A stretch of 61,772 nucleotides of DNA, filler included, from Dimargaris cristalligena (taxonomy: Eukaryota), in assembly GCA_003614675.1 (NCBI GenBank). It is 12 parts of 12 records of this genome, joined end to end, with 100 filler letters (N's around TTAATTAATTAA, not from the genome) between each part and the next. Parts side by side here need not be neighbours in the genome. Positions count along the whole stretch, not along the records: positions 51,663 to 56,670 come from ML003693.1; 11 more parts are not named here. The stretch is one strand, 5' to 3'. Shown here one piece after another: positions 48,192 to 61,772 of the stretch (the stretch's first letter is position 1; each line of letters begins with the position of its first letter). Both the position numbers and the translations under genes were made by a program. The notes beneath the pieces are model-generated. The model searched no databases and had not been told where the DNA came from. It was given only the letters and a program-made list of their open reading frames with translations.

Positions 48192-50329
48192 TTAAAGACG
48201 AGGCTGGTACGGCTTATTCGCCCTGGACGAGCCTGTGTTGGGCCCCGGGGGATGGTGGATGGTGGGCCCGGGCGCACCCGTTCGAAGAGGATTGGGGAAA
48301 GCCGCCGGAAGAGGTCGATTGAGGAGACCGGCCACCGAGTCCGATAGCTGCCGGGTGTGTCCCGTGACCGCCTGAAAGCGCGCCTTCATTTTGGTGTAAA
48401 GCCCCTGTAATTTTTCGACATCGAGACGCAATTGCAGGTTCTCTTCCTGCCGCTGAGTGGCCAGGGTGGTGATTTGGGTTTCGGACTGTGTGACTTGGGC
48501 GGCCAGTAGGTCCAGGTCAAACCGAATCCGACCCACCTGGAGCGCTAGGTCATCCAACCGGGCGTTGGCCGCGTCATCGAGCGGTGGGGGAGGGCCAATG
48601 ATATGTGTGGGGGGAAAGGACCCGTCGAGATCATCGTGGCCATGGTGGATAGGTGAGGTAGACCCCGGAAAAGGGATATGGGAACCCGGGACCCCCGTCG
48701 GGTAGTACCAGTTGCCGTCGACGCCGTAAATTGGGGGTGAGGGCCGGATAATATGTAGCGGGTGCAGGGGCCGGCCAGCCAATCGACCCCGGGGGTTCAG
48801 GGCCAGATCCTCCCATTCAGGAACAGGTTCGCCCGACGGGGTAAACGACGTCACCGGGGGTGGGTTGTGGCTAGGGGGCGGGGGCACCGATAATGCATCA
48901 TAGATTGGGATAGACCATTCATCGGGGTCTAGGGTATCCAGCCCATCACCCGGATCGGAGCTGAAGTTCGCTAAATCATGGGCGGACGGGCCCTCCATGA
49001 TGCCCCTTGCTTCCGTAGATGGTAGCTGGCCCACAATATAACGGTCCACCAGGGCCTGGAGGGAGGCTACCGATCGCTGTAGTTCGGTATTGGTGCACTG
49101 AAGATTGCGGTAGCGCTGGTCTTGGAATTCCAGAAGACCGGACAATTTGTGACAGAAACAGGTGTCGTTCAAGTGTTCCTGTAGCGCCTCTGACGAATCA
49201 CCTGTCCATGTGCAACCGTACGCTTTATATGTACAGAAAGTCTGGCGGGAGGGACAGCGGGTTTGATGATCAATAATATGTGCCTCCGGGCAGCGCTGGC
49301 TACAGAATTTGCAGGCCACTGTCGGCACACCGTCGCTATCCGGTTCCTCCAAACTTGAAGAAGGTGGACCATCGCCAAAGGACTTATTGGGATCACCGGA
49401 AATAGATATATGCTAATAGTAAAGGTTAGGACATACTTCACAAGAGGGGATACCTGTTGTATATGTATGTATTTATATATGTTGGGCAGTAGAGCACCTG
49501 GCGAAATGATTGGGAGCCAGCTAATATTATTGTAGACCCTCTGCTGGAGTTTCACTTACCCGACTGGATAGACAGATGCGACACTTAACGCAGTCCCGAG
49601 TGCCGTGGGGGCAGTTGGGTAGATGTAAATATAGTTCCTTGCGCGGCATTGCTATTGAACAGCTGGTGTGGTGACATGGTACCGTCTGGTAGGGACATTG
49701 GGTTCGCAAGTGAAGGGACAGTCGTTGGCGCTGGACCGGGATAGTGCACCCCAGGTTTTGGTTTGGGCAGTGTACCAATAGTTCATTGACTAGGCTTTGA
49801 AGCGCGACCGAGGCAGTCACCGTTGTTTCGGAAGTAAAAGCCTGTCGGTCTAACGGACACCGTGGTTCCGCGGCATTATTGAGCCCTTGAATACATTCCG
49901 CGCAAAAAGTATGGCTAGTTTATGAGGGAGAGTGTGTGGGGGGGAGGGGTACATGATAGAGTTCTATATTTATGAGTTGAACACCGCCAGAATAGGGAGG
50001 CATAGTTGGTTCAAAACTAAAAGCGAGGTTGGACTGGGCTGACTTTACACATGTCAACATGTAGGTTTTCGATAAGTCAAGTGAAAGTTCAATTCGTTGC
50101 TGGCTACATATCCACAACCCAGAGTCAAAGGCTCGGTATAAGGAAACTGGCAGATACAGCAAACGAGGTTGGAGTTGACCGTATCGACGTAGTCGATTGT
50201 GGCGTGTAAGTCTATATCGGCCGAGTTGGGTAGTCGGGAGGTGTCGCTACTGCTGCCCGCAGAAGGACTCATGGGGTTATCGGTAGGGCTCCAGACCACC
50301 GAGGAATTAGAATGAGAAGAACGAGACAT
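48192..50329 (-). CDS. RING finger + TRAF/SIAH-type zinc finger + coiled-coil protein (putative E3 ligase); exons 50329-50112, 49914-49560, 49412-48192
   Basis: Spliced CCICQFPY..LGCG|HTFCAECI..CPLDR RING; VNELLVHCPN..GC; repeated H...CP...C; intron 2 canonical with CTAAC branch point; intron 1 donor non-canonical. Confidence 0.8.
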
Positions 50330-53300
50330 GTAGGTAAATGGGTAAGTGTAGCAAGGTGGGGAATGGAGAAAGTAGCAAATATAATAGTGTTTCACCTCCC
50401 AACAATATACCAACATAAGGCGGCGAAATTTCACACTCTATTTTCCTCCCGCCATAATCACCGGTAGCACTATATTTACAAGTGGACGGGGTTAAAATAC
50501 CAAGTATAGTCGGTTTGGGTCTCAGAAAGTATACCACCCGGCCCTAAATGAGGGACATCCTTCCTATTTAGTGGGGAATATCTATTTCAATTTTAGACAG
50601 CAGTCCTATGTTCTAGATAAGCCAATTGATCGCCATTAAAACCAAAAATCAGATGTTAAGGAAAACCCCAGTACGGGCCTATCGTTACAGAGACTGTTCC
50701 TTGTGTGCACTTAAACCCCACTGGCACAACTTCAAACGCCTTCGATTATGTATTTCAATAGCTAGACGCCCTACTTAAAAGGTACTTGGAGTTAAACCGA
50801 CGCCGTGTGTGGTGACAGCAAATGCCAGGCAAGTTTTACCATTGGGGGTCTAAAAATTGGTGGTCTAAAAGCTATAGATCACCTTATAGTTCTTGTTACC
50901 ACCGCCCTCCTATTCTACAAACACCATTCCATATTTCCTGTCTAGGCTGTATAAACCCACCTATCACTTATCCTATACCTAAATTCCATATATATAATAG
51001 CTACACTTTAGTTAATAACAACGGCTAATCTGGTTATCTGAAGCAAAACCTAGCTCTTCTTAACTGTTCACTAATTAGTCACTATAATTTATACCTACCA
51101 TATGCTATCCCACTATATATTATTCACCCCCATTTTCTCGACCATTAGTTTACAATGCATCATATACCCCTGTACTAAAATTCACCTTTTGTAAGCGTTT
51201 TCTAAGTGCAATAGAACCCGAGGCTGATGTATGCCACAACTTCAGGCATGGCACATGATATTCTGTTGGAAGACCCCATAATCATCGGAATAGAAGTGGT
51301 AGACCAAAGCGCCAGACCCGCTAGCATGTGGAAACTGGCTGGTCCAACTGAAGTGGATGTTCTACAGTCGGAATAGCACAATCACCCGTAGCAATGGGCC
51401 AGAGCCCGAGAAAATTCCCAATAAACAGTCGGCATATCATGACCTGAGATTGTTGAATTGGAAAACACAGAATAATCAAACAATAGCCAACTTCTTTATA
51501 CGACCAGGTAGCTTTGAATTAGGTGCACGGCCAAACTAAACCCTCGGGAGTAGCCCTATATANNNNNNNNNNNNNNNNNNNNNNNNNNNNNNNNNNNNNN
51601 NNNNNNTTAATTAATTAANNNNNNNNNNNNNNNNNNNNNNNNNNNNNNNNNNNNNNNNNNNNTTTTCCCATACACGTATAATGCAAACCCTTATATAGCT
51701 GGGCCGAATTTCACCCATACTGACTGTCCCCCCTTCTAAATCTGCCAATCATCGCAGGAGTTATTTATTCAGGCCTTCTCCTATTAGTACATCGACCTCC
51801 CCGCTAGGGCTCAATAATTTTCAGCGTTATTTTGTTTGGCTGGAATGGAACAGTTAGTGCCACCACATATTGAAAGAAGTTTTAAAGAGCAAGGGCATTC
51901 GGCCCATCTTTCATTGGCGAAAAACCGCCAGACTGTAGTCCAAAAAAAAACCACCAAGCCTTAGTGGGGGTCGCGTTGGGCGATGTACCCAGGGTTCTAA
52001 TTCTGAATGTCTTGCCTGGCGAATACAGCAGCCAGCCAGTCGCGGGTCCTTTTTCCCCCTTAGTTTGTCAGTTCCTTTGTGGTTCTCGAAGGAAATCAAT
52101 ACAGAGACATTGCCACTATCTTAGCCTACCCTTTCTTACGTACCTTCGCATTCCATCCCTACTTTGTCTTAGCTATCTGCTCTGAGCCCAACCCTCCCTA
52201 CTAGGCCTATTGAGAGCCCTGGGCTGCACATTTACTTCTATATTCCCCCCCTCCTCCCTCCCCCTTTTGGCATTGACCTGTTGCCGCCCCCCCCTTGCCC
52301 TCCTCCTTCTGCTTGGCCCACTTTTACAGTGAGATAAATAATAATACACCCCCCCCTGTATCAAAACCCTTTGCTCCACAGTGTTGGTGGACTTCAGTAT
52401 AGTAATATCCTCCTTCAACCCCGTTCTCATTCGCACACAGCAGTCTTCAATTTTATTCATCCATCGCATCCAGCCTCAAGGTAAGTCCATTGGAACCTCG
52501 ATGTATTAACCATGGCGGTCGCAACGGGGGATTCTTATCATGGCTTCGCCATGGATGGCAGAAATATGCTGTTACATACTACTCAGTCACAAATTATCCC
52601 TAAGGCGGCCGGCTTTTTCTTACATCCTAATTTTCCCCATTTCCAAGATTCCCAAGATTCTATTTTTTTAGTTTATTTCCGGACTCTGGTATATTATTGC
52701 CCTTTACTTTTCCTTGGAGCTTGGGCTTGCCTGTCCACCGACCTAGTGAGGGTGGTGGTGGAGTCGCCCCCCTCTCTTTTACCTAGCCCATACTGCTTCC
52801 TTGGCAGTCCCTCACCATTTTACTGCTCATGGCCTGGGGAGTATTGGGTTTTCGAGGGCAATGCGTGACTTGGCAGGGTTATGAGTGGACAAACCCCTTC
52901 TTCCTCCAGTGAACTCTTCATTCGCGTTGCCTATTGGTTTCGGGGGATTCACTTGGGAATTGGGGGAGGGGGATTCACGCCATGCGCGCTGGTCTCGTTC
53001 TTTTCTTGAGGACTATCCTCATTTGGGAAGTTTTTTTCTGGCCAGTCCCACCAATATGGCTCTTTTTCTACCATGTCCCCCTTCCTTTTTACTATGGTGG
53101 CCAGCCCTAAATGAGAGCCAGCCTCCCACCCAAGGGAAGAAAGTGGTGGGGAATGAGGATGGGCTGCACAACCTCACATCTCGCGCCATTCAACTCCCCC
53201 ATGGTTCATGCATGACTATTGTTGGCAAGGCGGCGGCTCCCTCTCCCTGGTTAGGCATGGCCTTGAAGCGCATACATTCTTCACTCCCTTTTATTTCGCT

Positions 53301-53786
53301 TCGTGCACCACTTCTCCATTACATGCCCCTAATCGCCCATTTGGCTAAACCCCCCAGGCAGCCATTCTTTTTCCAGCGAATCACCCAAGCCCTGTTTTAT
53401 TAATTCCAAGCCTTCCTTTACAAGTCTCCCCATAGCGTCATTCGTGCATTGGCCCTGGCATTTCCCCGCGAGCCCTCCCTGCATCCTTTTCTCTGTTCCT
53501 GGCCCACCTTTGTATACTTCTTTCCTTTGCTGACCAGTTGTTGAATATCGACTTCAGCGCCCACCAGCCTGCTCATTCAGCCACATTTCTCTTTAAGGAT
53601 TCCCCCCAGTCGACTGCTACAGCGTTCCTGACGATCCACATTGGCCCACCGAAACAGGTTTTATGTACTGACACTCCTCGTTTTTCTTCACCCCCTAATT
53701 CCTACACCCCCCATACCCCAGCATAACCCATTCCGTGCCCACCTCGCTGGTCCATCTCTCGTTTAGTTTACCCTTAACTCTTTGAT

Positions 53787-56639
53787 ATGGACCTGCTCGT
53801 TGCGGCACAGCTGCCCGATTCCAGCCCCCCGACTTCACCGTCCCTCCCGAACGGCCAATTCAATGCCGCTCGAATGGCCCAATCCACAGACGGGCCCAGG
53901 GCGGAAACACGACCCAACTCCACCAACCTATCAATACCCAGTACCCCCACTGCCCCTAAGCCTCGTCCCGTCAACCATACAAAGAAGTCGCCCATGTCCA
54001 AAGCCGCTTCAGGGGGCTCGGCCGCTAATTTCAACCAGGGTGTAGGGGGTAATCACAACAATCGCGTATGTCTTCTCAATCTCGTTACATCCGGCTTGCT
54101 CCGGCCCCATTCCAGCGTAAGTTTCCGCAACCACACGGCAATCGTTACTCCAGCTGGGAAGCTTCAGCCGAACCCTACCGAACCCCTCTCTCAGGAAATG
54201 CAACCCGAATACGAAACCCCCAGTGCCTGGGCGACTGCCGTCTGCAAAATGGGTCGCCACGGCCGCGTGGCGGTGAACGGTTGGTCCTCGGTCAAAATTC
54301 AGGTGGCCTGCGATACCGAAGTTGGCCCGGCCCAGCACCTCGAAGTTCCGCTAGACGTGCTTCGTCAAAAATACTTGGCCATGACGAGCGGAAACCCAGC
54401 CATGGCTAACCTCCCGTTGCGTCATTTTTTGGGGGACTCCCGTAAGCGCAAGTTGCGTCCCGATACCCCCTCCACTGGCATTAAGAATCGCAAGGTGGCT
54501 GATGGGTCGTCGGAGCCTTCCGACTTCCACCGGTCACCCTCTGTGCCGTCCACTGGCCCTTCTTCCCCCGCCAATATCCCCGGAGCCATTGCGGCCTCCG
54601 TTCCTACTCCCCCGGAAATCCGCCCACCAGCCAAACGGAAATACACCCGGCACCCTAAGTTCCCCCCAGCCCTGGAACGGCCCTTAGGGGGCTGGCCTCC
54701 ACCAATTAAACTAAGTCCCATCGACGAGCCCATCATGCTTGAACCGCTCGACAGCACCAATCCAGCTGAGATGGCCAAACGCTCCCTCGCCCAAAAACTT
54801 CGTAACAAGCGCCGGAAAAAACTGAATATGCGCATATACGCTTGGCTGGATTACCGGCGCTCCACCCGGGGGGTTCCCTGGGCTTTTCCCCTACTACGCC
54901 GAGCCCAGGTGACTCAGTATTTAAAGAACCCAGAGTCGCAACCGGGCCCGACTAGTATTTTCCTCCCCTATTCACGCCGCGCATTACCAAGTCCGTCGGA
55001 TTATGTGTGCCGGACCGAAACCAGCCTTGATTCGAAACTAAACTGTGATAGGACTTGTACGACCTGTGGTCTAGGTATCCCAGCAGCTGGGCCCGCCCGC
55101 TCGGCCCATTCAGCGGGTGCACATTCCCGGGGTTCTAACCCGGCCAGTTCAGCGGCCACCCAATTCCCCAACCTTTTTCATTGTAAATATTGCGGAGAGG
55201 ACTACCATGCCACTTGTGCGGGACATGATGTTCCCTCCTCCGCCCATCCCTTGGTTCCCCATATCGCCCCTCCCCCCGCAGCGGCCCGTAAACTACCGGA
55301 CCTAGGGTCCAAACAGTGTGCTAATTGTGCGTCGTGTATGACATGTCATCAACGCGAGCCTGCAGGGCAACTTCTGCAATGCGATCACTGCCCTCAGCTA
55401 ACCCACGTGCCATGTTTACCCCCCATTGCCCTAGAGGCCGTACAGCAGTATCGGCGCTGGGTCTGTCCCGACTGCGCCCGCTGCCATGAGTGCGGATCCC
55501 GGGACCCCAACGGGCCTGAACCCGTGCCGCCCGATGGTAAGGCCTACTGGTCGTTCGATTACTCCCTATGCGGCCCGTGTGGAAAACTACTGGAGAAGGG
55601 TAATCTATGCCCCCTCTGCCAAAGCGTGTACCGGGATGACGATTACGAGACCCCCATGATCGCATGCGATACGTGCAGTCACTGGGTTCACTCTAACTGT
55701 GATGCCTATCTGACCCCCGAGCGGTACCAGAGATTGGTGGAAGACGAAGACTCCCAGTATTTCTGCCCCATTTGTCGTAAGGAGCAGGAGGAAACGATGT
55801 TCTGGACGCTACCGGTGGCCTTTGAGCGCGAACGGGTGTGGGTGGCTGCGATTGGGGGTCTGCGGGCCAGTTTCCGGCACGAACTGCGTGACCAGCTGTC
55901 ACCTAAAACGGGGCGTGGGGCCTCCGCAAAATCGACCGGGTCCGGCGCCACCAACGCCACTTTATCAGTTGAGATGCGATCCTCACCCAAGTCACTGCCC
56001 GCTACTGGCTCTAATTCCTTAGGCGGTTCACCGGGGATGTCTGCCGTACTTGAGGGCATTTCCTGTTTCAATTTCGAATTAGATATCCATCCGCTTTATG
56101 ACCTGGGTCTGACCCATCCACCATCCTCAATAGCGGAAGGGACCGCTGCTACTCGGATACGACGGGTGGGCTCCCTGGATAATGGTGATAGCCCCCGGAC
56201 ACCGGGTCTCTGTGATTTGCTGCTGGCGGCCGCCCATCCGGCCCACCCTGCCCGTGGAGCGAAAATCGGTTCGCTTTCTATGGGAGGTGGTGGACCCATC
56301 CCCCCTTCGTTATCCGCTGGCCACACCCCAATTTCAAGCTCCTTCGCTGGATCGGGCCGGACTCGACCCTCTAGCGGACTTCCGGTCTCGGCTACCAACG
56401 GCATACCCCATTCCAGTGCGATGGCCCGGCATAGCACAGTGGGAGTAGGGTGTAGCAGCATTAACAATACCAACAATCCCATCATTAACCCGGTTGGTGG
56501 CCCCCCGCCCTGCCATGCTTCGGTGGTAGACGCCGCTGAGGTCCTCCTGACCTTATTCAGTGCCGAGCCTAGTCCATCCCCGTCCGTGTCGGTTCCGCCT
56601 GCATCAGCCCATTCCAATCCGCACCTGAGCCAGCGGTAG
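53787..56639 (+). CDS. Chromatin reader with RAMA domain and three MLL/Trithorax-like PHD fingers, no SET domain (950 aa)
   Basis: LLNLVTSGLLRP..AIVTPAGKL..YETPSAWA..NGWSSV; PHDs including KGNLCPLCQSVYRDDDYETPMIACDTCSHWVHSNC; basic NLS-like RKRK and RNKRRKK. Confidence 0.85.
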   Translation: MDLLVAAQLPDSSPPTSPSLPNGQFNAARMAQSTDGPRAETRPNSTNLSIPSTPTAPKPRPVNHTKKSPMSKAASGGSAANFNQGVGGNHNNRVCLLNLVTSGLLRPHSSVSFRNHTAIVTPAGKLQPNPTEPLSQEMQPEYETPSAWATAVCKMGRHGRVAVNGWSSVKIQVACDTEVGPAQHLEVPLDVLRQKYLAMTSGNPAMANLPLRHFLGDSRKRKLRPDTPSTGIKNRKVADGSSEPSDFHRSPSVPSTGPSSPANIPGAIAASVPTPPEIRPPAKRKYTRHPKFPPALERPLGGWPPPIKLSPIDEPIMLEPLDSTNPAEMAKRSLAQKLRNKRRKKLNMRIYAWLDYRRSTRGVPWAFPLLRRAQVTQYLKNPESQPGPTSIFLPYSRRALPSPSDYVCRTETSLDSKLNCDRTCTTCGLGIPAAGPARSAHSAGAHSRGSNPASSAATQFPNLFHCKYCGEDYHATCAGHDVPSSAHPLVPHIAPPPAAARKLPDLGSKQCANCASCMTCHQREPAGQLLQCDHCPQLTHVPCLPPIALEAVQQYRRWVCPDCARCHECGSRDPNGPEPVPPDGKAYWSFDYSLCGPCGKLLEKGNLCPLCQSVYRDDDYETPMIACDTCSHWVHSNCDAYLTPERYQRLVEDEDSQYFCPICRKEQEETMFWTLPVAFERERVWVAAIGGLRASFRHELRDQLSPKTGRGASAKSTGSGATNATLSVEMRSSPKSLPATGSNSLGGSPGMSAVLEGISCFNFELDIHPLYDLGLTHPPSSIAEGTAATRIRRVGSLDNGDSPRTPGLCDLLLAAAHPAHPARGAKIGSLSMGGGGPIPPSLSAGHTPISSSFAGSGRTRPSSGLPVSATNGIPHSSAMARHSTVGVGCSSINNTNNPIINPVGGPPPCHASVVDAAEVLLTLFSAEPSPSPSVSVPPASAHSNPHLSQR

Positions 56640-58699
56640 AGTGCGTCGGGGTTAGGGCGAGTTTGGGGGGNNNNNNNNNNNNNNNNNNNNNNNNNNNNNN
56701 NNNNNNNNNNNNNNTTAATTAATTAANNNNNNNNNNNNNNNNNNNNNNNNNNNNNNNNNNNNNNNNNNNNAGAGAAGGTCCCAGAACATTGGATGACTAA
56801 GTAGAGGGAAAGGGAGGGGAGTTCCTAAATAATAATATTAGTCATCACAAAGGATAGGTAATACTTGGGTAACCAATAAATTCAATGTGAAATAATAAAA
56901 GGGAAAAAAAGGAAAGGGAGAAAGCTATTTTTAATAGTACTTTGAACAGGGGTGTAGTTGGGCCAGGGGCAGTGTGAATACAGGGGTACAGTCTAGTTAG
57001 GGGTAGGGGTGTAGCTTAGTCAGGGGTATATATAGGAAAATACTATACTCATTAGGGGTAGGGGCAGAGTTCTGATAAGTATGAAAAATAGGTAAAAAGT
57101 AGAAGTAGGTTAAAATGTGGTAAGTTCACTATAAACTGCAAAGGCAGGATGGCTCACAAGTGGAAATAGTAAATTACATATATAGGGGTATTAGTTTTGG
57201 GCTTAATACAGTTAACTAGGGGTTCATCTTGTATGTCTATGACTTATACTGTAGCTAGGTAGAGCAGTCCATTAGTATTACTGTAGATATGACTAGGGTA
57301 GTGGCAGACTGTAAAGATGTATTTTGGAAGTATCAGGTATGAATGTTTAAGGCAGCTGGAGCAGGGGGGGGGTGTTATGATGGACTAGTAATGAGGCAAG
57401 GTACCATAGGATAGATAGGAATCAAAGTGATAATAGTGAGATTATTAAAATAAATAATCAGAATAGATAAAATAAGGGGAAAGTTGCAAACTGAAGAATA
57501 AGCTATTGGGGAAGGGTGGGATTATATTTGAATAGAAGGGACAGGGGAAATAATAGTAATGACTAACTAATATGTATTGGTAATTAGAAAAGAGGGAGAG
57601 TGTAGTAATAATAATATAAATATGGTAGAATAATGGGGACATATTTTCTTATAGTGAGTTTCTAATTTACCCATCTATTGGCATGGATTTTGTTTATATA
57701 ATTAGTTAAACTTATAGTGTAAATAAATTGGTCATAACAAAGCCTAACTGAGCTAGTTTAAGGTTTATTAGGTAGGGTGATATTACTGTAATAGCAAATA
57801 TTACCACAGGAATTATTATTTATTATACTAGAATCTTATTAGGGTAATAGTAGGGGTAGGGGGTTTATATATAAAACTATACTAATCATTCTGCATAACA
57901 ATATTATGGGAGTTTATAAAAAAAACTCATATATGTCACATGTTATTCACGTGACTTTTATTGAGCCTTGTTGCCATTATATGTAATAAAATGTCTTTGG
58001 TATTTAAATTTATCCCATTTGGGCCTCCCTAAGGATTTTTTCCACCCCTATGGTGCCCCCAATGGGGAATATATTTGTCAGCATGATTAGAAAAACATTC
58101 CAAAGATAGGTGATGGGAATAAAATGTAACAGCCAATAGGGGTCCAATTAGCTGATCTGTTACAGTAGTTTGGGCCAATGGTTGATGAAGATCTACTAGT
58201 TTGAGAATATCAGTCAATAGCTGGTGAGTACCAGAAGACAATGGTAGATCCCACAGCTTGGATAAACTCATCCTAGTGACTGTATATAAAGGGGTACAAT
58301 CCCCCATAACATTATTTTTTTCCTCACTTTTCGTAATTACCCACTATTTATTTCCCATTTTAGTTGATGAAGGGGGAAGGTGCCCACAACACACTTTATA
58401 AGCCTAGTTCTCTCACTGACCTTCATTCCTTTGTTAGTATACCCACTATCTACATTATCCCTGTAGTTCTGCGCCTTTATCATATGGTAGTTGGTAATGT
58501 TATTATATTCCTTGTAGGGCAGTTGTTTATTTTTCGTATTCGCTAGTGCTATCCCCATGTAATATAGCAATATTTTTTACGTTGAGGACAAACTAGTGCT
58601 GTTCATTGTTATTACCAAAGCCTCTAAATTTTCTCCCGCCACTCCATTTCCAACACCGCGTTCAATTACTTTGAATTTCCGAACTGCCCCGTATCGGCG

Positions 58700-61575
58700 A
58701 TGCGGTTGCCGCCCAACTCAAGTGATAACATGTCGGACACCGAACCTGAATACGAAGTAGAGCGCATTATCGGTCGCAAACTCCGCGCCGATGGAAAATA
58801 TTACCAAGTGAAATGGGGCGGCTACCCCCTGTCGGAATGTACATGGGAGCACCAGAGTAGCCTGACTCATTGTCAACAGGCCATTCAATTGTTCGAATGC
58901 CACTATCGCCGAGAGAACGGTTTGACCGGTTCCACATCCCCAACCTTAGATAGCGATGGCCTGCCGCCCGAACCCCTGCTATTGTTGAAAGAGGCCCAGT
59001 CCTTTGCGGGTCGAGTTGACAAAGCACCGAATGAGTCCAGTCGTGAGCTGCTACAGCAGGCCCTTAGTAAACTTAATCGATCCAATCTGGAGCAATCCGG
59101 TAGCAGCCAACAAGAGCGGTTTCGCGAGCACCGGGTAACCAAAGTCCTTGGTCGTGAACGTGACCCGCAGGGACGTGTCCGCATCCAAGTGCAATGGGAT
59201 ACAGGTGATGCTACGTGGGAACCGCTGGCCAATGCCACATATTTTTCCGCAGAGTTTGAAAAGTATGAGCATCAGTGCTACGTCACTGATTACACCCTCT
59301 CCGGACGACGCCTGAAAAACCAGGATACTGCCCCCTCGCGGCCATTGAACCGGCATTCGCTCCGTCCCCTTACCCCCCGCAACCCACTACCCGGCAGCAG
59401 CTCTTCATCGCCGCCACCTAAGCCACCAAAGACTTTGCCCACGCCAACTGGTCCAACCAACGCTACCTCCAACCCCAGCCCTAAGCCCAAACCGACTTCG
59501 AGACAATTGTTAGCCGGTCCTCATCAAAGTCCCCCCACCCCCCAACCTCAGACCACTGTAGCCGGTAAGTAGCCTAGGATGGTGTTTTGCTTTGATTTCA
59601 GGTCGCTTAACCTCGCCATTGATTAATCCTTACTGATCCCTACCTAGGGATATGTGCCGTTACAACATACTCAACATACGCAAGCTTCTAACACTATTGA
59701 TTAAATTAATTAATTATACTGAACTGCATGGTGGCAAAGTAGCCGCTCCCGCTCCAAACCAACTGCCCAGCAAGCTAACGCCCGAAAAACCAGGTATCAG
59801 TTCCCCACACCGGAGCTCGCCACACGGACCTGAGGTTACCATTGAAGTCCCCATGCCACAAGGGAATGCGGTGACTTCGCCGGATCCCAAGGCCACCCTT
59901 AGCGTTTCCCAGGCACCCATTCCTTCCCCTCAATCAACACCAGCTAAGCAACCGGTTCCTAAGCCATCCCCTATTTTGCAGCGGGCCTTGTCAAACTCGC
60001 CTTTGCCTGTCGATTTTGAGCCCGACGCCCCTTTAGGCGTGCCTTTACTCCAACCGGTCGTCTGGATCGGGGACTCGGACGACGAATCGAAACCAACTGA
60101 TCTTATCCGAAATCCCATTAAGGAAATCCCTGGCTGGCAGTCCACCCTGAGCCTGAAATATAAATACCGGGGCCAGGTTTTTTTAGGGCCGCAGGTCAGC
60201 CATCGGAGTCCCACGCCGTCCCCTCCGATCCAGCCTTGTCGCCTGCGGGCCAAAATAATCGTCATAGACTCGGACGGCGACAGTGACGGTGACAGCGACG
60301 AATCCAACAGCACTCGAAGCGGTCCGCCTCGCCCACTCAAATTAAATGGGGATAGCACTCCAACCGCGGTGCAAAAGGCTTTACCCGTGACTCAGCCCAG
60401 TCGCCCTAACAATACTATTCCTCTTAGACCCTGGGTCAAATTAACCCAACAGATGCAACATAGTTTATACCGCCGCGGCCTCCAGCAGCGCTCTTGTATT
60501 TTATGCGCAAAACCAGACGATGATCATGGTGGTGGATCTCACCGTAGTGGGGTCAAGCAATTCATTGCCTGTCAAACATGTACTGGTTTGTATCATCCAG
60601 ACTGCGCCCACGCCTGGTTAGAATATTTGGGCCGCGAACACGGCGATTCGCCCGATACACCGCCATCAGAGAGCTCATTGTGGGCGGAATTGCGGACAGT
60701 TTTGGACAATGACCTGGCCCAAGTCACGCCCGGCATTAGTACAACCACCCCGGTTGCCCTCCAAATGGCATTATGGCCGAGTTGTTGGTTTTGTAAGGGG
60801 GGATTTGGTGAAATCAAACGCCTCCTGAAATATACCCACGATATCGGCGGATATCCACCCGGAAAGGGACCTAGTCCCACCCCGGCCCCGTGGGTGCTGG
60901 TCTGGCTGGAGAACCAGTCCCTGCGAGAGGCCACCTGGCTGCCCTTCGGCTGGGTAGAACACCGTGCCCCTTATAAAGCCAAAGGACTCCTTCGTCGCGA
61001 CCCGACACCCACGTCGTCCGTGGCAAAGGCCTGGCACCGCCATTTCGAGTCCCCAGTGGTGGTCCAGGCCCGCCCCGAAGCCTGGCGGGAACTACCCGCG
61101 CACGGACTCCATCTCGGGTCTCTTCTATCTGGTCACACCAACCAGCAGGAGAATTCCAACCTCCGGAAGGCCCTTAAAGCGGGGGTATTTCCGCCCGAGA
61201 CCGCCCGGGACCTACTCACCCATTGCCCGGCCTACTGTTGTCTCGCCCACGCGTTTGGCCAGCGAGCCTTTTTAACAATGGTTCACCAAATGGCCCGTTA
61301 CGAGCCGGCCCCGTCGTTTGTGGCCACGGCGACCCACCCACCGGAATCCTTCGGCTCCGTTGAGGTCGCCTCAACGATTGGTCCAATGGTTTATATGGCC
61401 GCCGATCCAGGTTGTGGTACGTGGCTACGCCAACTGAACCAAGCCCCAGATCAGTTTTTAATTGACCGTATCCTTGACCTTAGAGTGGAATACCGTGCCT
61501 TGGACGAGGCTCCCAGTAAGAGAATTGTTCTCAAACAGATTTACGTTCGCTGGCAGGGCCAACCCTATGAACAAG
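58700..61575 (+). CDS. Multi-chromodomain + PHD protein, 3'-partial; exons 58700-59564 and 59743-61575; probable N-terminus of a CHD remodeler
   Basis: EYEVERIIG..YQVKWGGY..TWE; RVTKVLG..VQWDTGDATWEP; CILC..CQTC..YHPDC..CWFC; LVWLENQSLREATWLP; IDRILD..YVRWQGQPYEQ; GTAAGT donors at 59565 and 61576. Confidence 0.85.
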
Positions 61576-61772
61576 GTAAGTATTTATTAATTTAAAAGGC
61601 ATTGGTTATGGACCGGTTTGCCTCTCTCCCCCTGATTTATGTATGTATGCATGTATGCGTATATCACCAACGCACTATTTGGTACTGTTAATGTAAACTA
61701 ATCTCAGCCCACTCTTCTTTTATTTGTTCGGCCAATCCGGTACATTAATTTTACATTACTTAGTGCAATGTA

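Follow-up and report, generated by a model that had tools for sequence, protein, structure and literature searches.

Proteins of the Trithorax/MLL type share one domain order, in which PHD1-2-3 are followed by an ePHD, FYRN, the Win motif, and a KMT2-type SET domain. This order is common to Trithorax and MLL1-2 (KMT2A/B) as well as to Trr and MLL3-4 (KMT2C/D), and a map of it is available for MLL1 (PMC8022399). MLL1-4 are described as conserved in eukaryotes in a chromatin survey whose main text does not contain the term 'RAMA' (bioRxiv 2021.11.30.470311), and in fungi Set1 is usually given as the sole COMPASS enzyme, as in accounts of yeast (PMC7762615) and Mucor (PMC10938801). The RAMA domain, in turn, is joined to a JAB deubiquitinase in MPND and has a counterpart in the DNA methyltransferase CcrM's C-terminal domain; SET and PHD are listed among its less common eukaryotic partners (Iyer, Zhang and Aravind 2016, PMC4738411). 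Here we describe a gene of the early-diverging fungus Dimargaris cristalligena (assembly GCA_003614675.1) in which a RAMA domain almost certainly stands at the head of a complete Trithorax/MLL-type protein related to KMT2A-D. The gene was studied in a stretch of 61,772 nucleotides (nt), hereafter the window, which consists of 12 unrelated contigs of 5,002-5,117 nt each with N spacers between them; adjacency across these spacers is not genomic.

Extent of the gene and its Trithorax/MLL layout

As assembled, the gene is a single open frame at window positions 53787-56639 on the plus strand that encodes 950 amino acids (aa), and its stop codon (56637-56639) sits 31 nt before the end of the contig. 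The first-pass annotation had read this frame as an adaptor protein with no SET domain. Contigs of four sequencing runs were compared at the junction; those of X1 (possibly the source of the assembly), X3 (from a second study), and X4 span the place and that of X5 falls short of it. All three contigs that reach the place agree with the window up to 56621 and then diverge into other sequence, and window positions 56616-56667 occur in them on the opposite strand, approximately 273 nt (91 codons) downstream. The part up to 56621 is covered gap-free by contigs of runs X1 and X3. A full-length D. cristalligena protein of 2,099 aa (P0046), which shares a 90% cluster with the 950-aa protein and is 99.8% identical to it over residues 1-945, accounts for what follows. 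The inverted piece falls in frame at its residues 1037-1053, and the loose end of the run contigs, followed by hand, reads on into residues 1054-1063. A second contig of the same genome, C169, matches P0046 from residue 1337 to the C-terminus and includes the SET-bearing third, and P0046 is colinear with both contigs; residues 946-1336 are otherwise missing from the assembly. Thus, the last ~50 nt of the gene-bearing contig, including the stop, are an inverted downstream piece, and the SET-less appearance of the window gene is an assembly artefact. Inverted joins of this kind are typical of amplified DNA.

It is hardly credible that the 950-aa protein is nevertheless genuine, ending at a true stop or belonging to a split gene. 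The deposition of the 950-aa and the 714-aa C-terminal models as separate records would agree with this possibility, as would the existence of SET-less members in the Kickxellales, but three runs, one of them from another study, have no stop at this place, and the full-length protein is nearly identical and colinear with both contigs. The two database records represent two halves of one gene. A SET-less adaptor is accordingly rejected by the run contigs, by P0046, and by the SET-bearing contig. Two further candidates were dismissed. A 1-nt frameshift near C169:168 (L009:160-175, close to the contig start) might have indicated a pseudogene; it does not occur in P0046, and we take it for an error of the assembly. 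Nor does the stop call for a nearby intron, as the full-length protein is colinear. The features of the gene in the window are as follows.

51663..56670: gene-bearing contig C1486 (ML003693.1)
53787..56621, plus strand: true coding part, residues 1-945 of the 2,099-aa Trithorax/MLL-type protein; no intron seen here
54048..54386, plus strand: RAMA domain, residues 88-200 (Pfam and AlphaFold2 fold match), with T144, S146, N164, W166, D190, and R193
54771..54902, plus strand: basic stretch, residues 329-372, 57-66% identical in five Dimargaritales orthologues against 15-20% in the preceding linker
55056..55328, plus strand: PHD1, C424-C514, recognised by its Cys/His pattern, with two low-complexity insertions
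55335..55475, plus strand: PHD2, C517-C563; residues 517-563 are the best Pfam PHD stretch
55482..55580, plus strand: four-Cys zinc knuckle between PHD2 and PHD3 (C566, C569, C595, C598)
55596..55778, plus strand: PHD3 of the MLL1 type, residues 604-664, with cage residues Y615, Y620, M624, and W633
56526..56579, plus strand: amphipathic motif of the A-A-E-x-L-L-x-L-F type, residues 914-931; no other linear motif of the protein is as well conserved
56622..56670, minus strand: misjoined inverted contig end; the minus strand encodes residues 1037-1053 of the same protein, the plus strand contains the false stop 56637-56639

In Pfam scans the full-length protein contains, in this order, RAMA, PHD1-3, ePHD, FYRN, and SET. 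The ePHD is matched by zf-HC5HC2H at 31.6 bits (cut-off 29.1) and the SET domain also exceeds its cut-off; FYRN scores E 6e-5 and 23 bits (cut-off 24), and the cut-off is passed in the family members P0022, P0025, and P0026. A conserved block (50-56% identity) occupies the expected position of FYRC, and a Win-type motif, A-A-R-T-D, follows it at residues 1541-1545, before the SET domain. This layout, down to the terminal SET, recurs in all five Dimargaritales orthologues (49-53% identity, 1,864-1,976 aa), and the linkers between the domains are 15-31% identical among them. SET was present in 15 of the 16 long homologues scanned (24 were found), and an A-R-T motif of the Win type in 7/7 Dimargaritales records, in Jimgerdemannia and Geosiphon, and in three of four Blastocladiomycota-type records. 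The 13 solved structures that best match the SET piece of this genome are of KMT2A, 2C, 2B, and 2D and precede yeast Set1, with E 1.3e-6 for KMT2A against 0.076 for MLL5; MLL1 and MLL3 took the top Foldseek ranks for the SET model. The intact SET domain of Allomyces likewise scores higher on KMT2A (153.6 bits) than on Set1 (129.1 bits), and a separate canonical Set1 is encoded in the Dimargaris genome. Some family members already bear the labels 'trithorax-like' or 'Histone-lysine N-methyltransferase 2A/2B' in databases.

Several observations weigh against parts of this assignment. FYRC has no Pfam match in P0046, and even in Allomyces it reaches only E 0.012. The Win motif is altered or unmatched in Mortierellaceae (7 of 31 records fail a loose pattern) and was lost together with SET in Kickxellales. 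Trees based on SET only were poorly resolved and did not lead to rejection (p-AU 0.065) of a topology in which the degenerate SETs are held together with Set1. The KMT2 assignment draws on the architecture and the best matches. On these grounds the order RAMA, PHD1-2-knuckle-3, amphipathic motif, ePHD, FYRN, FYRC-like block, Win, SET is, with near certainty, that of a Trithorax/MLL relative. The Dimargaris protein differs from MLL1 in being half as long, in having FYRN and the FYRC-like region close together, and in carrying RAMA before the PHD fingers at the place of the AT-hooks and CXXC. Pfam gave the 2,099-aa protein no match to CXXC, AT-hook, or bromodomain, even with E values of up to 1 admitted, and a zf-CXXC search of the genome found no match either; its controls likewise gave none.

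RAMA, family distribution and N6-methyladenine

The presence of a RAMA domain at approximately 54060..54380, which the first-pass annotation had recognised from a residue pattern, is borne out by structure. An AlphaFold2 model of 54048-54389, built on a 14-row alignment, has a mean predicted local distance difference test score (pLDDT) of 86.5. Among 48,161 chains compared, it matches the RAMA domain of MPND with Z 12.3 (root mean square deviation 2.0, 85 residues aligned) and CcrM's C-terminal domain with Z 12.0 (2.7, 88 residues); the next structural match, a SAND domain, has a Z of only 5.0, and Foldseek ranks 1-5 are all occupied by MPND RAMA or the CcrM domain. The outcome of the profile check suggested earlier is divided. 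The PHD family is matched in the 950-aa protein at E 2.4e-12, and RAMA (PF18755) is matched on residues 89-171 at E 8.2e-6, but with 26.2 bits against a curated cut-off of 35.2. Family members in Allomyces and Catenaria and P0076 pass this cut-off (40.5, 41.6, 35.5, and 35.7 bits), and a profile built from 14 family members finds MPND at E 5.5e-4. In the Dimargaris genome this RAMA is the only match (one candidate). Searches of Atlas features gave leads that were all below 0.9.

Six RAMA residues, T144, S146, N164, W166, D190, and R193, are invariant in the family and map to phosphate-binding or core positions of MPND and CcrM. For this comparison T144, S146, N164, W166, and R193 were set against S113, S115, and W135 of MPND and S315, N330, W332, and R350 of CcrM, with the numbering offset and the CcrM residue mapping deduced from motif spacing. 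In the MPND RAMA-DNA structure the backbone is contacted via S113, S115, and W135 and no contacts to bases are described (PMC9963953); the C-terminal domain in the CcrM-DNA structure is likewise reported to lack base contacts (PMC6787082). A pattern with the Ser and Trp residues of the MPND backbone contacts is found in 69 of 69 members that have RAMA and PHD3. The Dimargaris RAMA thus has the fold and the backbone-contact residues in common with both described systems, but it is 23-31% identical to them and is joined to a KMT2 body instead of a deubiquitinase or a DNA methyltransferase.

Named carriers of this protein belong to the Blastocladiomycota (Sorochytrium, two Allomyces, Catenaria), Dimargaritales, Kickxellales, Mortierellaceae, Jimgerdemannia, and Geosiphon. 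The RAMA profile had 67 matches among 1.84 billion representatives; names were checked for 19 of 50 new representatives, and many are nameless. A further word-based homologue search with alignment comprised five proteins. In a tree of RAMA plus PHD with 23 members, Blastocladiomycota (support 100/100), Dimargaritales with Kickxellales (97/91), and Jimgerdemannia with Mortierellaceae (97/93) form groups, a topology in line with vertical descent under the species relations taken as background. RAMA-only trees had little resolution in most parts and placed the Blastocladiomycota RAMA on a separate long branch; a PHD-only tree rooted on an oomycete protein had a long outgroup branch. The oomycete Trithorax-like protein P0051 had no RAMA match. 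Five unnamed environmental proteins (P0083, P0085, P0090, P0078, P0088) contain RAMA followed by MLL-type PHD fingers, or the start of these, and in the trees seem to branch outside the named fungal clades. The RAMA-PHD fusion may be older than fungi. In the ascomycete Saitoella a stand-alone RAMA of the same type occurs (P0081, P0105, P0106), whose end resembles the amphipathic motif of the family; perhaps it is a relic of the gene in Dikarya.

RAMA has been proposed as a candidate sensor of N6-methyladenine (6mA) in DNA (PMC4738411), and the first-pass annotation had suggested that the Dimargaris protein links promoter 6mA to active histone marks. This part of the suggestion does not agree with the distribution of the family, which extends beyond lineages with 6mA and the methyltransferase AMT1. 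The RAMA-PHD protein, its RAMA above the Pfam cut-off, occurs in both Allomyces macrogynus and Catenaria anguillulae; for both, AMT1 is given as zero, as is every other MT-A70 family in their rows (PMC12695648 supplementary table 1). The value of 0.02% 6mA listed for C. anguillulae (PMC11258239 supplement) agrees with the zero MT-A70 row. Together with the solved RAMA domains, which touch phosphates only, these data suggest that the RAMA domain is probably blind to methylation.

A preference of RAMA for symmetric 6mApT linkers in AMT1-positive fungi, where it would, with PHD3, bring the COMPASS core or other cofactors to promoters marked by 6mA and trimethylated lysine 4 of histone H3 (H3K4me3), thus appears rather improbable, although it is not without arguments. 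The Dimargaris genome contains four MT-A70 genes (L012, L013, L014/L015, and L016: METTL3-like, AMT1, METTL14-like, and an AMT1/AMT6-7-like piece), and its AMT1 matches the ciliate enzyme at E 4.7e-72 versus 1.4e-34 for METTL3. A 6mA value for Dimargaris was not in the table searched; high 6mA levels are listed for Lobosporangium (1.57%), Gamsiella (1.27%), and Coemansia spiralis (1.24%) (PMC11258239 supplementary table 1), carriers of the protein from Mortierellaceae and Kickxellales. RAMA is conserved at 72-78% across the five Dimargaritales orthologues, on par with the PHD fingers, and the long branch of the Blastocladiomycota RAMA would allow the two groups to differ in function. A pull-down study, finally, reported that the RAMA of MPND preferred 6mA DNA, which counts against a methylation-blind domain; this preference concerned one context and extended neither to GATC nor to MYSM1 (PMC6591016), and later work describes no effect of 6mA on binding by MPND RAMA (PMC9963953; also PMC11037411). 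The stand-alone RAMA of the ascomycete Saitoella also argues against a function tied to 6mA, as does, weakly, the lack of Mucorales, the 6mA-richest group, among the named matches, given that the look-up covered 19 of the 50 new representatives. In an evolutionary version of this idea, which we regard as improbable, the ancestral RAMA-Trithorax would have lost catalysis in terrestrial early-diverging fungi and its RAMA would have become a reader of symmetric 6mApT. If so, 6mA would serve this MLL as unmethylated CpG serves human MLL1, a dead enzyme would connect linkers that carry 6mA with H3K4me3 nucleosomes and with the COMPASS core, and the Blastocladiomycota proteins, with a live SET and no AMT1, would be a natural methylation-blind control.

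Predicted histone reading, loss of SET motifs and a possible scaffold role

The PHD cassette was recognised correctly from the start as three fingers with an MLL1-like third one. PHD1 ligands, with the exception of C427, are invariant in 18 aligned members, and so are the four knuckle cysteines (18/18). A four-Cys knuckle is present at the equivalent place of MLL proteins. Among solved structures, MLL1 PHD3 constructs match best (E 3.3e-12 to 7.1e-11), and the four cage residues of MLL1 PHD3, Tyr1576, Tyr1581, Met1585, and Trp1594 (PMC8022399), align with Y615, Y620, M624, and W633 of the Dimargaris finger. The reading of methylated lysine 4 of histone H3 (H3K4me) that the first-pass annotation had attributed to this cassette is thus well grounded in the alignment.

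RAMA, PHD3, and SET occur together in 31 of the 119 stored proteins, and their SET domains fall into two states. Four Blastocladiomycota-type proteins (P0012, P0049, P0050, P0075) have kept the NHSC and YDY motifs and find KMT2 as best solved matches; three of them also have the post-SET cysteines (P0050 is partial). The other 27 of 27 SET-bearing members, including that of Dimargaris, contain neither NH-x-C nor post-SET (two are partial models). In Dimargaris QHSA stands at the position of NHSC, and the chain runs one residue past the last Tyr and ends at the position that corresponds to MLL1 residue 3945; in Mortierellaceae and Geosiphon the His is lost too. The post-SET zinc site closes the pocket in SET enzymes. 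Binding of S-adenosylmethionine (SAM) is described as dependent on the NH motif, which is called essential for it (PMC12886896). With the Asn that binds SAM, the Cys that binds zinc, and the entire post-SET gone, the SET domain most likely does not methylate, and we consider it probable that the domain is catalytically dead in the Dimargaris lineage, which would set it apart from the active KMT2A-D. Because the C-terminal half of SET is still 66-69% identical across the five orthologues, far above the linkers, the domain seems to be kept for some purpose. A third state is its absence. SET is missing from all 12 named members in the Kickxellales, and seven of these proteins end 5-37 residues past the FYRC-end motif. 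Ten shorter Mortierellaceae models are SET-less as well, which may be split models because their longer relatives carry SET; two Actinomortierella records also lack it. A hidden post-SET exon was rejected: the last codons contain no GT donor, and all six Dimargaritales proteins tested end where P0046 does. One C-x-C-x-C pattern is present in one frame downstream of the SET stop. The Dimargaritales SET also contains a glycine-rich, poorly conserved insertion of ~100 residues (L009:1770-2075, residues 1931-2028 of P0046).

An active, non-canonical methyltransferase, with weak SAM binding or a post-SET lid supplied by a partner and with RAMA and PHD3 providing the targeting that CXXC and PHD3 provide in MLL1, seems improbable to us. 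The SET fold appears intact, as the core of the model has pLDDT >90 and matches SET folds at Z 10.8-12.2, and His and the last Tyr, the strong conservation, and the Win motif would all suit an enzyme. However, NH-x-C or post-SET is kept in none of the 27 SET-bearing members outside the Blastocladiomycota type, even the His is gone in Mortierellaceae and Geosiphon, and the Kickxellales dispensed with SET while retaining the remainder of the protein.

We slightly favour a non-catalytic KMT2 scaffold at active 5' chromatin. The domain order, the loss or retention of motifs, and the distribution can be read directly off the proteins; the binding events and the loss of activity are deduced from conserved residues of solved homologues. 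PHD3 would bind H3K4me2/3 that the genome's own intact Set1 deposits, and RAMA would hold adjacent linker DNA by its phosphates, reading neither bases nor methylation. The Win motif would dock WDR5 and hence the shared COMPASS core, and the amphipathic motif and the dead SET would offer surfaces for protein binding. Such a protein would be located where 6mA is without the need to read it, since 6mA lies between H3K4me3 nucleosomes and co-location is therefore expected. An adaptor role, as first envisaged, would remain plausible, but by way of a dead-looking and not a missing SET, and the link to 6mA finds no support.

Some details fit this scaffold less well. The last SET Tyr is retained in the Dimargaris protein (it is Phe in four of five orthologues), and there are SET enzymes that partner subunits complete. 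The position of MLL1 Gln1587 is Ala in the Dimargaris PHD3, and the second cage Tyr is lost in several Kickxellales. Gln1587 is reported to be important for H3K4me binding by MLL1 (PMC8022399).

The amphipathic motif invites a different explanation. It is 81-95% identical in the five orthologues, and its pattern occurs in 58 of 65 members (0.1 expected from shuffles). It resembles Sin3-binding helices. The protein might be a co-repressor scaffold like Set3/MLL5, which after the loss of catalysis would read H3K4me and use the amphipathic motif to bring in a deacetylase complex, independently of WRAD. The motif is not found in the intact-SET Blastocladiomycota-type members P0012, P0049, P0075, and P0077, and Kickxellales retain it while Win and SET are gone; both would suit such a scaffold. 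The combination of PHD with a dead SET is, moreover, the design of Set3, UpSET, and MLL5 (KMT2E), in which an H3K4me-reading PHD likewise accompanies a SET without the NH motif (PMC12886896). However, the Dimargaris SET is not of the Set3 type but closest to KMT2A-D within a full Trithorax layout, as the E-values for MLL5 and KMT2A indicate, and points to a different ancestry; Set3 and MLL5 have a single PHD, whereas the Dimargaris protein has four PHD-type fingers. The match between motif gain and SET loss amounts to a single evolutionary step, and Dimargaritales keep the Win motif. A complex prediction for the amphipathic motif with Sin3 PAH1-2 of the same genome, in which no alignment was used, scored 0.01 and weighs neither way. 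Overall, we consider the co-repressor explanation unlikely and retain the COMPASS-linked scaffold.

Neighbouring features and place in the family

The basic stretch between RAMA and PHD1 could provide an extra DNA contact or serve nuclear import. Upstream of the ATG, window positions 52481-53786 form a long non-coding stretch with a GTAAGT donor-like site at 52481 and several branch- and acceptor-like sites, possibly an intron in the 5' untranslated region. The previous contig contains a gene for a RING/TRAF-type zinc-finger protein with a coiled-coil end (48192-50437, minus strand). On the next contig, a chromodomain frame (PF00385, E 8e-18) precedes one in which a weak PHD-like finger and chromo-like motifs occur; the region 58628-61595 (plus strand) is probably one multi-exon chromatin gene.

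We place the Dimargaris protein in the KMT2A-D family as a divergent form, and file it neither as an active member nor as a 6mA reader. No description of a fungal Trithorax/MLL or RAMA family was found in the literature searched, which lacks most subscription journals, and the term 'MLL' does not appear in the main text of two surveys of fungal SET or COMPASS proteins (PMC9692433, PMC10938801). For RAMA combined with PHD or SET, the carriers given in the passage in PMC4738411 are animals, chlorophytes, stramenopiles, rhodophytes, and large DNA viruses, with fungi not among them, and the passage draws no connection between the fusion and Trithorax/MLL; the non-JAB architectures in its supplement may list members.

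Early-diverging fungi thus have a second gene besides Set1, of the Trithorax/MLL type, with a DNA-binding domain of bacterial type ahead of the PHD fingers. Its three SET states along the species tree, intact, conserved but dead, and none, constitute a natural series for the non-catalytic roles of MLL proteins. The readers of 6mA have been named a key question (PMC12695648), and RAMA orthologues from fungi with and without AMT1 offer a clean test of them.

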